In this document: piece after piece, positions 29,176 to 35,162 of the stretch
Layout of the letters: each line of letters starts with the position of its first letter
Numbering within the stretch: position 1 is the stretch's first letter
The notes under the pieces: model-generated
Told to the model about the DNA's origin: nothing
What the model saw: the letters and a program-made list of their open reading frames with translations, nothing else
The model's database searches: none
Assembly (NCBI GenBank): GCA_034437755.1
Contig: DAOTTV010000078.1
Location: 1-64,000 of the forward strand
Length of the DNA stretch: 64,000 bases
DNA from: Anaerolineae bacterium
Lineage (GTDB): Bacteria; Chloroflexota; Anaerolineae; Aggregatilineales; Phototrophicaceae
Direction of reading: 5' to 3'
Position numbers and translations under genes: made by a program

Positions 29176-30378
29176 ATGGAACGAGCAAGTACAACCTTAA
29201 GACTGGTATACATTGGTATTCTCACTTTGATGGGTGGCTTACTGGTATACGCGGTCATTTTCCCTAACGTTCAAGAGCGGCTAGAACCCCCGCCGACCCC
29301 GACCCCGACACCGGTTCCGATCGAACCGATCGAAGTTTCGATCGTGACGGCGCTGGCAGTCGAACCTTGGGTTAGCCAAGCGGCAGAGACCTTCAACGCG
29401 CAGGGACGCAGTATTGACGGTCGTTCGGTGACAGTTGAAATCATCCCAATGCAAGGCTTAACCGCACTCACGCGGTGGAGTCAGGGCGATTTCGATAGCT
29501 TGCCGACGGCATGGCTTGCCGAGAGTCGTATCTGGGTCGATCAAGCGAATGCCACCGCGCTCGACCGTACCGGACGAGATATTTTCTTGACGGGCGGGCG
29601 CTATCGCGCACAACCGGTCGCGATCTCGCCACTGGTGTGGGGCATCTGGCAAGAGCCTTATAACGCCCTCACCCAGCACTTCGGCACTGATGATCTCTCG
29701 TGGGATCAACTGCACGAAGCAGCACAGGAGGACGATTGGAGCAATCTCTCCGGTGATGCGGACTGGGGTAGTTTTAAGTTAGTGATGGCACATCCCATCC
29801 GTGACCCAGCTGGACTGACGGCGATGGTCGGCGCGGCAGGCGAGTATTACGACAATCCCGCGCTCACTGCCGATGAATTACAAGACCCACAATTTTTAGA
29901 CTGGCTCGGTGATCTGTTCGATACCGTGGTCGATTTTAGTCCGGTCGGTGCCGAGAATATGCTCCTCTACGGACGTAGTAACGGCGATGCCGGACAACTG
30001 GTCGAAGCCTACTTGCTAACCGAGATGGCCGGCGTACAATCGCGCTGGGGCGAGACCCTGCAAATCGTCTACCCTGATCCCATCAGCTGGTTCGACTTCC
30101 CCTTCGCCATTTATATGGGCAACGAGACCAGCTCGGTCGAAAAACAGGCGGCGCTGGAGTTCAAAGATTTCTTGCTCAGTGCAGAACAGCAAGACATCGC
30201 GCTAGACTTCGGCTTGCGCCCAGCTTGCCCGGAATGCCCGATTGATGATGGGCTGATTGCCCAATGGCAGGATATTGGCGTTCTCGTCGATATTCCTAGT
30301 AGTTCCCGCATGCGACCGGCGACAATTCGCGGTCTTGAGTCATTGACTGAGTGGTACGTCACAAGATATGAGGAATAA
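29176..30378 (+). CDS. Membrane-anchored extracellular solute-binding-like protein (type-2 PBP fold).
   Basis: N-terminal signal-anchor helix and a PT-rich linker (PPPTPTPTPVP), then a ~330-aa domain paralogous to the middle domain of the next protein (shared ..DF..L.......QD..L..G.RPA.. block). Confidence 0.55.
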   Translation: MERASTTLRLVYIGILTLMGGLLVYAVIFPNVQERLEPPPTPTPTPVPIEPIEVSIVTALAVEPWVSQAAETFNAQGRSIDGRSVTVEIIPMQGLTALTRWSQGDFDSLPTAWLAESRIWVDQANATALDRTGRDIFLTGGRYRAQPVAISPLVWGIWQEPYNALTQHFGTDDLSWDQLHEAAQEDDWSNLSGDADWGSFKLVMAHPIRDPAGLTAMVGAAGEYYDNPALTADELQDPQFLDWLGDLFDTVVDFSPVGAENMLLYGRSNGDAGQLVEAYLLTEMAGVQSRWGETLQIVYPDPISWFDFPFAIYMGNETSSVEKQAALEFKDFLLSAEQQDIALDFGLRPACPECPIDDGLIAQWQDIGVLVDIPSSSRMRPATIRGLESLTEWYVTRYEE

Positions 30379-30381
30379 GCG

Positions 30382-32925: not shown

Positions 32926-32954
32926 AAGGCTCAGAGGAAGGATAAGCAATTTCG

Positions 32955-35162
32955 ATGTTTCGACAAATGATAACCCGAGTGGGGCACGTCTGGTGGGTGC
33001 TGATGGCAGTTGCGGTGGCAATCGCCGCCTGTGATAGTGTCCCTGCGCCGGATACCGACGATACAGCGACCGTTCCCGCAACCGCGACACCGATGCCCCT
33101 CTCCGGCGAGGCTGTGATTTACGTCGTCGCGCCCCTCTCCGGCGAGCGTGCCCAGCAAGGGCAAGCCCAGTCTGCTGGCGCACAGCTAGCGGCTTCGATC
33201 TTGAATGAACAGGGCGGCATCAACGGGCAAGAGATTGTGATTCGTATCATCAACGATCGCAACGATGCCGCATACGCGCGTCAGGTCGCCGATGAAATCG
33301 TGGCAGAAGCGGCAGGCGATAAGGTGGTAGGAGTCATCGTCTCGGAGAGTAGCGACCCGCAGTTACAAGCGGTGCGCGATACGTACCTGAGCGACCAGCT
33401 GGACTCGGCACCGCTGGTCGTCGTGCCAGTCTCGACGAATCCACTGGCGACTACGCTTGAGCATCCGCGCTTCTTCCGTTTGACCGCGCCGAGCATCACG
33501 CAGGCTTCAGAGATTGCCGCGGCGTTCAGCGAAGGTAACGTGAACGATGTCGTCACCCTGCAAAGCCCGACGGGCGAGTCACAGTTGCTAGCCGAGCGTT
33601 TTCAGACCACCGCGCGTGACTTCGACATCACCATCAGCGACACCTATGAACTCTCGCCCTTCGACACAAATTTTACCGAGATGGCGCTACAAATCTTCGA
33701 GCAAAATCCAACCGGATTATTCCTAGCGACCAACCCGTATGAGACCGGACAAATTCTCTCCGCGCTATACGCGATCAACTATCAGGGGAGCATCTACGCG
33801 GCAGACCAAGCCTTACCCTACGCGGTGGTCGATGAGCTGGGCTGTCAGGCAGAAGGCATCTTCCGGTCGTCGGTTGTACCCGTGCCACGCTTCGCCATGC
33901 CCCCCGCGCAACGTCAGCGCTACGCACAGGATACTGGACGCGAGCCGGAGCCGTTCTCGGTCGCTGGTTATGCCGCAGTGGAGTTCATCGCGCAGGCGTA
34001 CAATGCCAGCGAGGGCGACCCCACTGCCGCCGTCGAGTTCGCACACAATAACCCGGTGCCGACGCTGTTGGGCGACCTGACCTTCAGCGCGGATGGCGAG
34101 CGCGAAGGTGCAACGATGCACTTCCAGCAAGTGCAGGGGCGCATCTTTGAAGATGAGTTCCAGCGCGTGGTCGGTACGGTGCCGCAAGCCAGCGCGGAGA
34201 CTGGCACCAATAGGCAGACCTATCTCGATCGCACCTTCGCTGAGGATGCCGAGCCGATCATCTTCGCTGATTTGAACTGGAATAGCGCATTGTTCCACAA
34301 CGGAGTCGCCCGCTACATCATCGAAGCCGGCTATGACGTACCCACACGGGCAATCGCCGGCTCGACAGTGCCATCATTCCAACGGCTGACACGCGGCGAA
34401 GTCGATATCATCATGGAACGCTATAACTTCGACGATACGGTATCCGAAGCACTGGCAAGCGGTCAAATTGTCGATCTGGGTGTCAACTTTAGCGATGCTG
34501 TGCAGGGATGGTTCGTGCCGCGTTACGTGGTCGATGAGAATAATGCACGCGCGATCACGCCCGTCGCGCCCGATCTACAGCATATCGATCAGCTTGACCA
34601 GTATACCAACACATTCCGACTGAGCGATCAAAGCGGTATCGGGGCGTTCTACGGGGGTGTGCCGGGCTGGACAGCCCATAAGATCAACTGCTTGAAGCTG
34701 AAAGCCTACCAGCTAGACGATAACTACGCACAGGTCACCAGCGACTCCACCAGTGATCTGTTCGGATCATTGGCGACGGCTTACGACAACGGCGACCCGA
34801 TTCTGCTTTATCTCTGGGCACCGACATCGGTTTTCGGGCGGTATGATCTTGTCCAGCTAGAAGAACCAACCTATACCGATACATGCTGGGCGACTGATCG
34901 CGGGTGTGCCTATCCCACTGGTGATGTACGCATCCTCGCCAGCGGCGACTTGCCCCAGCGCGCCCCCGATGTCACTGAATTTCTGGAGACGATGGCGATG
35001 GACATCGACGATGTGAGTAATGTGCTGGTACGTATTGAAGACGAAAGCCTGACACCGGACGAAGCCGCGATTATCTGGTTGCGCGATAATCAGGATGTCT
35101 GGTCGCAGTGGGTCAGCGATGACGTGACCGAGCGCATCCGACAATCACTAGCCAATATGTAA
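32955..35162 (+). CDS. Secreted two-domain solute-binding protein: LivJ-like (Peripla_BP_6) N-terminal domain fused to an OpuAC-like C-terminal domain.
   Basis: Signal/anchor followed by IYVVAPLSGERAQQGQAQSAGAQLAASILNEQGGINGQEIVI (branched-chain amino acid SBP signature). The C-terminal half resembles glycine-betaine SBPs (IIFADLNWNSALFHNGVARYIIEAGYDV). Confidence 0.6.
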   Translation: MFRQMITRVGHVWWVLMAVAVAIAACDSVPAPDTDDTATVPATATPMPLSGEAVIYVVAPLSGERAQQGQAQSAGAQLAASILNEQGGINGQEIVIRIINDRNDAAYARQVADEIVAEAAGDKVVGVIVSESSDPQLQAVRDTYLSDQLDSAPLVVVPVSTNPLATTLEHPRFFRLTAPSITQASEIAAAFSEGNVNDVVTLQSPTGESQLLAERFQTTARDFDITISDTYELSPFDTNFTEMALQIFEQNPTGLFLATNPYETGQILSALYAINYQGSIYAADQALPYAVVDELGCQAEGIFRSSVVPVPRFAMPPAQRQRYAQDTGREPEPFSVAGYAAVEFIAQAYNASEGDPTAAVEFAHNNPVPTLLGDLTFSADGEREGATMHFQQVQGRIFEDEFQRVVGTVPQASAETGTNRQTYLDRTFAEDAEPIIFADLNWNSALFHNGVARYIIEAGYDVPTRAIAGSTVPSFQRLTRGEVDIIMERYNFDDTVSEALASGQIVDLGVNFSDAVQGWFVPRYVVDENNARAITPVAPDLQHIDQLDQYTNTFRLSDQSGIGAFYGGVPGWTAHKINCLKLKAYQLDDNYAQVTSDSTSDLFGSLATAYDNGDPILLYLWAPTSVFGRYDLVQLEEPTYTDTCWATDRGCAYPTGDVRILASGDLPQRAPDVTEFLETMAMDIDDVSNVLVRIEDESLTPDEAAIIWLRDNQDVWSQWVSDDVTERIRQSLANM

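Follow-up and report, generated by a model that had tools for sequence, protein, structure and literature searches.

A transporter-less trio of tethered substrate-binding and vWA proteins in an Anaerolineae bacterium, derived from a PspA-linked Chloroflexota operon, as a possible extracytoplasmic sensing or scaffold complex

What substrate-binding domains do when they are fused to one another, and in one case to a von Willebrand factor A (vWA) domain, with no ATP-binding cassette (ABC) importer beside them is the question raised by three consecutive genes, here called A, B and C, of an Anaerolineae bacterium (Chloroflexota; Aggregatilineales; Phototrophicaceae; assembly GCA_034437755.1). The genes lie at positions 29176-35162 of a 64,000-nucleotide stretch (contig DAOTTV010000078.1, positions 1 to 64,000 of the forward strand), to which we refer as the window. 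An initial annotation, made from the letters alone, had described them as an orphan cluster of substrate-binding proteins (SBPs) and had suggested a role other than transport. Our analysis likewise favours signalling or scaffolding over uptake, and it changes the picture of an isolated cluster: the trio is instead a derived form of a widespread Chloroflexota operon that is linked to PspA or, in some lineages, to TelA. We tentatively propose, with a confidence that stops a little short of even, that A, B and C form a tethered extracytoplasmic ligand-sensing or scaffold complex and are not a set of receptors for ABC importers.

The open reading frame (ORF) map recovers the three plus-strand genes exactly where they had first been placed, with gaps of 3 nt between A and B and of 29 nt between B and C. 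Gene A (29176-30378, plus strand, 400 aa) encodes a transmembrane (TM) anchor at residues ~8-30, a Pro/Thr linker at residues 37-51 and a type II (cluster D-like) SBP fold at residues 52-400, for which Pfam gives a weak SBP_bac_11 match (8.6e-7, residues 56-348). In the translation and in the AlphaFold2 (AF2) model, its N-terminus is a hydrophobic TM helix (helix 4-35 in the model) that leads into PPPTPTPTPVP. Gene B (30382-32925, plus strand, 847 aa) encodes a three-domain lipoprotein, whose lipobox reads LAG-C25 in the translation. Specifically, an OpuAC domain of the E. coli ProX type (30529-31338, residues 50-319; Pfam OpuAC 6.8e-35) is followed by a middle SBP-like domain (31414-32301, residues ~345-640; SBP_bac_11 7.6e-7 over residues 426-624) and by a vWA domain (32410-32868, residues 677-829; VWA 9e-24), and a conserved C-terminal tail ends in LLSEFF. 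Gene C (32955-35162, plus strand, 735 aa) encodes a second lipoprotein (lipobox IAA-C26, again read from the translation) with two SBP domains of different structural classes, namely a LivJ-like type I domain (33123-34136, residues 57-394; Peripla_BP_6 9.2e-28) and an OpuAC domain of the DmpX/TmoX type (34254-35084, residues 434-710; OpuAC 1.5e-45).

All domain calls of the initial annotation were right, and the Pfam families that it had expected (OpuAC, Peripla_BP_6, SBP_bac_11 and VWA) were all found. The same is true of the paralogy that it had proposed between A and the middle domain of B, which share 23% identity over 217 aa (BLASTP E 2e-9). NCBIfam gave nothing above threshold, its sub-threshold matches being to models for ProX, choline SBP and LivJ-type proteins. 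AF2 models both A and B with confidence (pLDDT 87 and 83), and a Foldseek search with the B model matched ProX/ChoX, cluster D SBPs and the vWA domains of ANTXR, ITIH, BatB and alpha2delta as separate pieces, domain by domain. In this bacterium, a monoderm member of the Anaerolineae, A, B and C are anchored on the external side of the cytoplasmic membrane.

The origin of the trio becomes apparent when B is compared with shorter proteins. Proteins of ~570 aa that contain only SBP_bac_11 and VWA domains are far commoner than three-domain B; they are 40-60% identical to residues 340-847 of B, which align with them over their full length. Eighty metagenome loci were fetched with the alignment of these short SBP-vWA proteins, and locus L012 was added to the census. 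Their ORFs were clustered, after which six-frame translations were scanned with hidden Markov models (HMMs); the counts below were tallied by hand among the short-form loci with enough flanking sequence, and those for A and for the LivJ-like protein over all loci with enough flank. We found that the canonical Chloroflexota operon runs in the order regulator, PspA, A, SBP-vWA, X and LivJ-like lipoprotein (PBP6). The regulator joins a STAND-type NTPase (Pfam nSTAND1/AAA_16) to a C-terminal winged helix-turn-helix (wHTH) of the OmpR type (Trans_reg_C) and is present in 21 of 28 loci. PspA (~225 aa, PspA_IM30 3.2e-19), which is duplicated in some cases, is encoded upstream in 39 of 42 loci, an ortholog of A directly precedes the SBP-vWA gene in 69 of 71, X (~275 aa, a two-TM hairpin plus a long coiled coil) is found in 61 of 64, and PBP6 (~390 aa) in 47 of 50. 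An HMM built from 36 PBP6 proteins matches the N-terminal domain of C at 7.8e-60.

The core of this operon is thus orthologous to A, to the SBP-vWA portion of B and to the LivJ-like portion of C. Neither PspA nor X nor the regulator was found in the OpuAC-bearing loci within the fetched flanks (up to 10 kb on each side). Therefore, the window cassette is a derived form, in which the three extracytoplasmic proteins were kept, the cytoplasmic and TM partners are missing from the cassette and two osmolyte-binding domains were gained.

The operon also has a variant form. In two lineages, represented by L017 and by L009/L010, TelA and a TM/coiled-coil protein stand in place of PspA, and the second of these lineages already carries both OpuAC fusions. 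TelA (PF05816) and the TM/coiled-coil protein (~305-338 aa) lie upstream of A-B in all three loci (4170-6369 in L010), and in L009/L010 two extra genes, encoding 376 aa and 207 aa without Pfam domains, are inserted between B and C. Protein X itself (L034 11434-12501, L076 11601-12407, L023 11569-12390) belongs to no Pfam family; its two-TM hairpin bears the motif WWQWW, and SLTD and the long coiled coil come after it. As a relative of TelA, of PspA or of the TelA-associated c17 protein it was rejected, the hhalign probabilities of 0.2-7% being not significant. Proteins with two TM segments and a coiled coil are also encoded after the SBP-vWA genes of Miltoncostaea and Streptomyces; they are alike in architecture to X, their homology to it is unproven, and hmmsearch found nothing for either (for the Miltoncostaea protein hhalign gave a probability of 7%). 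In L034 (3-5379), and also in L030 and L091, a conserved set of four genes lies upstream of the regulator-PspA operon and encodes proteins of 610 aa and 231 aa without Pfam domains, a PF13941 'MutL' protein (glutamate-mutase-associated, ATPase-like) and a protein of 369 aa with no assigned function. The antisense ORF clusters c5, c7, c8, c9 and.12 were discarded, as they merely shadow the genes for A, PspA, X, PBP6 and B on the other strand.

The derived cassette is itself conserved. At 90% identity, ~27 clusters have all three domains of B, and each of these clusters stems from metagenomes or metagenome-assembled genomes of Chloroflexota/Anaerolineae; the LivJ-OpuAC fusion of C is found in 18 clusters at the same level. 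Wherever a relative offers enough sequence (L001-L005, L008, L013-L016, L100, L101 and the distant L099), its genes run in the order A-B-C, at identities from 80% down to 40%. The surroundings are unrelated among these relatives and include a formyltransferase, a two-component system, a 5460-aa adhesin, glycosyltransferases, a type I restriction-modification system and a PucR/Rieske/DAO set. The trio forms a self-contained cassette in about ten Anaerolineae contexts.

Some of these surroundings deserve a description of their own. Downstream of the trio in one relative (L015/L005; L015 15059-19214) lie genes for a PucR-type regulator, the alpha subunit of a Rieske ring-hydroxylating oxygenase and a DAO flavoprotein, which could be a set for betaine or methylamine demethylation; it is present neither in the window nor in the other relatives. 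Giant surface proteins adjoin the trio in L015 (1-8217, the 5460-aa adhesin with Big/Cadherin domains), in L100/L101 (300-5555, 1751 aa, no Pfam domain) and in L009/L010 (19-22.5 kb, Kelch/RHS proteins). These neighbours are mutually unrelated, and their presence may be coincidence.

We next consider whether the domains could still bind ligands, since degenerate pockets had been named as an observation that would make the trio a set of decayed paralogs. In the OpuAC domain of B, an aromatic cage is formed by W109, W185 and Y234, which align with W65, W140 and W188 of ProX (1r9l), plus W60. Across 26 orthologs, W109 is invariant, position 185 is always aromatic (24 W, 2 Y) and Y234 is present in 23, with L or I in the other three. 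For the OpuAC domain of C, the best PDB match is 7YLE (RnDmpX with dimethylsulfoniopropionate, DMSP), at E 3e-26. DmpX is a DMSP-binding protein with eight published pocket residues, among which Tyr200 is essential (PMC10030565). When these residues are mapped onto C, W35 corresponds to W442, T64 to T471, W84 to Y490, E113 to Q517, W152 to W572, A153 to T573, Y200 to Y619 and W202 to W621. Five of the eight are thus identical, including the equivalent of the essential Tyr200, and three are conservative changes; all these positions are invariant or nearly so in eight C orthologs. W442, Y490, W572, Y619 and W621 make up the onium cage of C, with T471 and T573 at the positions of hydrogen-bond donors for a carboxylate.

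In Foldseek searches the OpuAC domains match ProX, ChoX, DmpX and TmoX. The two domains are only 21% identical to each other and belong to different subfamilies, ProX-like in B and DmpX/TmoX-like in C, and for this reason we conclude that they were recruited separately. The LivJ-like domain of C finds LivJ, LivK and Atu2422 in the PDB. In a sequence-only alignment, S79, T102 and E226 of LivJ correspond to S130, T161 and D284 of C and are largely conserved, and the equivalent of Y202 is N, D or G.

The vWA domain of B, for which an intact metal-ion-dependent adhesion site (MIDAS) had been claimed, has all residues of that site: D683-x-S685-x-S687 (DVSGS), T750 and D780. The site is kept in 35 of 36 homologs. 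The closest PDB structures are ITIH4, ANTXR2 and the A domains of vWF. A distant homolog of B (L099 5756-8431, P0035-like, ~38-40% identity) keeps the OpuAC and SBP-like domains; its MIDAS residues are lost (E, T, L, Y and E at the five positions) and no vWA domain is detectable. Taken together, these sites look functional and not degenerate; they comprise two different quaternary-ammonium/sulfonium cages, a putative LivJ-like amino-acid site and a complete MIDAS.

The remaining type of domain, shared by A and the middle of B, offers a different kind of evidence. The A model matches a PhnS-like protein (4r6y, at 4e-12), a sulfate-binding protein, FbpA/FutA and AfuA in a Foldseek search of the PDB, all at 10-16% identity. 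A has more than 1000 homologs, mostly from Chloroflexota, and an exhaustive phmmer search yields 711 clusters at 50% identity with E<=1e-3. The motifs SPDSSxW, FRWSHPS..G and YPxEGTxWxDHPLxLL are invariant in the family of A and the B middle domain. Many of the matches are proteins of 700-900 aa with a C-terminal A-like domain. Ten of these long proteins were sampled, and six of them (P0227, P0231, P0249, P0255, P0261 and P0274) are Hanks-type Ser/Thr kinases in which a Pkinase domain is followed by a C-terminal SBP ectodomain that, where identified, is of the A-like SBP_bac_11 kind. N-terminal zinc-ribbon or zf-HC2 domains occur in several of the ten. Therefore, this A-type subfamily of SBPs recurs as an extracytoplasmic sensor domain.

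The absence of an ABC partner, as stated in the initial annotation, holds both in the window and in the neighbourhoods of ~100 related loci, where no cognate permease or ATPase was recognised. Of the two observations that the initial annotation had named as refuting, cognate transporter genes in relatives and degenerate pockets, neither was made. No importer permease or ATPase lies beside the trio, and the sole ABC ATPase of the window is encoded at 8866-9657. It follows a gene for an HlyD-family membrane-fusion protein (7231-8850, plus strand) and is followed by two ORFs of ~400 aa, so that 7231-12121 looks like a MacAB-type efflux system; because the ATPase gene adjoins the HlyD gene, we assign it to an exporter and reject a hidden ABC importer in the window. 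Linkage of the OpuAC domains to genes of the opuAA/AB or proVW type was found neither in the window nor in the ~100 related loci, and linkage of the LivJ-like domain to genes of the livHMGF type is absent in all loci examined. When the fetched flanks were searched by phmmer with an ABC ATPase, 3 of 101 loci had an ATPase-like ORF, none of them importer-like or conserved: L001 and L014, from the same organism, encode a fused exporter-type protein, and the ORF of L049 lies 8 kb away.

Directly 3' of C and convergent with it lies, as first noted, a CoA-transferase gene on the opposite strand (35165-36361, minus), which encodes a family III enzyme of the succinate-glutarate type. Genes for a Suv3-like helicase, a protein of the major facilitator superfamily (MFS) and proline dehydrogenase follow further downstream. 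A betaine/DMSP catabolic neighbourhood was considered and rejected, given that the CoA-transferase is not CaiB and that the GCV_T protein of the window is GcvT/YgfZ-like, its match to the DmdA model (7e-6) being far under the DmdA cutoff.

On the other side of the trio, a gene for an MVP-like/SPFH protein (27413-28933, minus strand, 506 aa; Pfam MVP_shoulder, Band_7 and weak Vault repeats) diverges from A. Its product is a bacterial homolog of the eukaryotic Major Vault Protein (phmmer against the PDB, rat/human MVP, E 3e-17), with residues 89-452 aligned to MVP 339-729, and it matches no NCBIfam model. As a conserved partner of the trio this gene was rejected, as it adjoins the trio in no relative. 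The 242 bp that separate A from this divergently read gene (28934-29175, no strand assigned) presumably hold the promoter of the A-B-C operon; a scan for promoters with the sigma-70 consensus and for terminators gave nothing above shuffle expectation, and the promoter was not located in this region.

To place the trio among known systems, we compared it with described proteins of similar build. The name 'substrate-binding and VWA domain-containing protein' is used by NCBI for proteins of ~550-600 aa with an SBP_bac_11-like and a VWA domain, which share the domain order (an N-terminal anchor, a cluster D-like SBP domain and a C-terminal vWA domain) and the MIDAS with B. Over the last 500 residues of B, identity is 40-60% with the Chloroflexota members and 24-34% with so- or similarly named proteins of Miltoncostaea, Streptomyces and Variovorax (the full name is used in Streptomyces and Variovorax; for the Miltoncostaea homolog the annotation reads just 'VWA domain-containing protein'). 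Named proteins in plasmid records also align with residues 340-847 of B. In the Miltoncostaea and Streptomyces records, a hypothetical protein with two TM segments and a coiled coil follows the SBP-vWA gene. B differs from the named proteins by its extra N-terminal OpuAC domain of the ProX type. Consequently, the description of the fusions as unusual stands in part: the OpuAC additions are rare, with the ~27 and 18 clusters given above, whereas the fusion of SBP and vWA is common and already has its NCBI name.

Among PspA/IM30 systems, such as Psp and LiaIH, the likeness lies in the operon, where PspA is immediately followed by orthologs of the trio core in 39 of the 42 informative Chloroflexota loci; PspB/C, PspF, LiaI/F and Toastrack were not recognised in the loci examined. 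A published survey of phage-shock-protein (PSP) systems does not mention a vWA or SBP-vWA context (PMC11237479), and searches of the available literature on PspA with vWA and SBP and on 'substrate-binding and VWA' returned no papers. In fold and in ligand-contact residues, the two OpuAC domains match ProX/OpuAC, ChoX, DmpX (7YLE) and TmoX (4XZ6); the LivJ-like domain has the fold of LivJ/LivK and the Ser, Thr and acidic contact positions. These domains differ from the SBPs of ABC importers in being fused to each other and to vWA without a linked permease or ATPase, and in that LivJ Tyr202 is not conserved. With the alpha2delta subunit of voltage-gated Ca2+ channels the trio shares an analogy of logic only, in that a lipid-anchored extracellular MIDAS docks (in B, putatively) onto a membrane partner beside a small-molecule-binding domain; the latter is an amino-acid-binding Cache fold in alpha2delta and a periplasmic-binding-protein fold in B, and homology is confined to the vWA domain, through which alpha2delta appears among the Foldseek matches of B. 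The Bat (BatA-E)/MoxR-vWA systems likewise have a membrane-associated vWA, and the NCBIfam and structural matches to BatA/BatB cover only the vWA domain of B. BatA/B are without SBP domains, unlike B, and the loci examined show no recognisable Bat partner of the MoxR, DUF58 or TPR kind; specifically, neither MoxR AAA+ nor DUF58 occurs among the Pfam assignments of the neighbours in the window or in the relatives examined.

These observations can be joined in a working model of a sensing or scaffold complex. The MIDAS of vWA domains binds partner proteins through their acidic side chains, and AmiC, ANF receptors and class C G-protein-coupled receptors have LivJ-like/Venus-flytrap domains for sensing. 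By the model, the MIDAS of B would dock an acidic residue of a partner, which may be A, C or another surface protein, and ligand-induced closure of the SBP domains would alter the assembly of A, B and C. In the ancestral operon, X, a membrane protein, could pass the state of this assembly on to PspA and the regulator, which would make the operon an envelope-stress module. In the lineage of the window, two compatible-solute-binding domains would have been grafted on independently, and the cytoplasmic partners would no longer be adjacent. The grafted domains may then retune the complex so that it reports or holds external osmolytes (glycine betaine, DMSP or compounds like trimethylamine N-oxide, TMAO) together with an amino-acid-like ligand.

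Several observations weigh against this model. A has only ~7 cytoplasmic residues and B and C are lipoproteins, which leaves no evident transmembrane signalling route for the trio alone. The HMM scans found no homolog of PspA, X, the regulator or TelA in the 64-kb window, and because of this it is orthology with other lineages, and not the locus itself, that ties the trio to envelope stress. Receptors for transport would have intact SBP pockets just as well, and it is common for an orphan SBP gene to serve an ABC translocator encoded elsewhere. In addition, the attempt to name a specific ligand for A and the B middle domain from the fold search was rejected, as the matches, at 10-16% identity, are generic cluster D SBPs.

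The main rival account starts from these last considerations: tethered B and C would be orphan capture receptors for several substrates, collecting osmolytes of the betaine/DMSP type and amino acids for distant ABC translocators. The cages of both OpuAC domains, like most of the positions that correspond to LivJ contacts, are intact and conserved, the best structure and sequence matches are to genuine transport SBPs (ProX, ChoX, DmpX, TmoX and LivJ), the SBPs of monoderm bacteria are in general lipoproteins, as B and C are, and the visible portion of the genome amounts to 64 kb. However, an importer permease or ATPase adjoins the cassette in none of the ~100 loci, and the LivJ-like domain is orthologous to a protein of the PspA operon that is itself without a transporter (47 of 50 loci). 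A type I LivJ and a type II OpuAC domain within one free lipoprotein would need to dock on two different translocators; moreover, the A-type domain is elsewhere the ectodomain of a kinase, and the neighbours in the window are not betaine-catabolic. We therefore consider uptake somewhat unlikely, though it deserves a serious hearing. A related account keeps the absence of a transporter and dispenses with function, holding that the genes are decaying paralogs of transport SBPs left behind after transporter loss. The weak Pfam scores of the A-type domains (E ~1e-7) and the distant P0035/L099 variant, in which the MIDAS residues and any detectable vWA are missing, agree with this. Yet the reading frames are intact over their full length, the three genes keep their order in relatives of 80% and still in those of 40% identity, AF2 gives confident models and the A family has strongly conserved motifs of its own. 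Across orthologs, the residues of the aromatic cages and of the MIDAS show little or no variation, from which we conclude that the trio is not decaying; conservation largely refutes this account, and we hold it to be very improbable.

It could also be argued that the trio serves at the cell surface as an adhesion or matrix scaffold, in which the vWA/MIDAS would bind an external partner (a neighbouring cell of the filament, a sheath or S-layer protein, or a host or matrix component) and the SBP folds would be lectin-like or structural. In bacteria, vWA domains outside the cytoplasm typically belong to adhesins and sortase targets, and B gives weak NCBIfam matches to 'marine proteobacterial sortase target'; its vWA is closest to those of ANTXR, ITIH and vWF-A, and giant surface proteins adjoin the trio in several relatives (L015, L100/L101 and L009/L010). 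Those giant neighbours, however, are mutually unrelated and not conserved, a strict conservation of small-molecule pockets is unexpected for purely structural modules, and the tie of the ancestral operon to cytoplasmic PspA and a regulator points inward, to envelope homeostasis. As such, we regard adhesion as an improbable explanation, less so than decay and more so than uptake.

A tethered ligand-sensing or scaffold complex thus remains the interpretation that we prefer. A more specific form of it, possible but doubtful in our view, is that the trio represents the extracytoplasmic input module of a new envelope-stress or osmosensing system of Chloroflexota, in which SBP sensors assembled through the MIDAS would signal to a two-TM coiled-coil protein and from there to PspA (or TelA) and the STAND/wHTH regulator, and which would have been rewired in the lineage of the window.

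The OpuAC-SBP-vWA and LivJ-OpuAC fusions, the transporter-less trio and its PspA/TelA-linked parent operon appear to be undescribed, while the single domains and the SBP-vWA core are already catalogued, though uncharacterised. In Anaerolineae metagenomes, annotations as 'glycine betaine transport SBP' are often read as evidence of osmolyte or DMSP uptake, and for genes of this kind they may be wrong. The variant in the window, with its intact pockets of the betaine/DMSP and amino-acid types and no transporter, can be regarded as a natural experiment, in which transport receptors would have been re-used as sensors or scaffolds. Stress sensing by PspA/IM30 outside Proteobacteria and Firmicutes is largely unknown, and the operon provides a candidate for its extracytoplasmic input. 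If the trio does represent such an input module, PspA-type membrane protection would be directly coupled to the sensing of external small molecules, which would constitute a new input logic for Psp systems.

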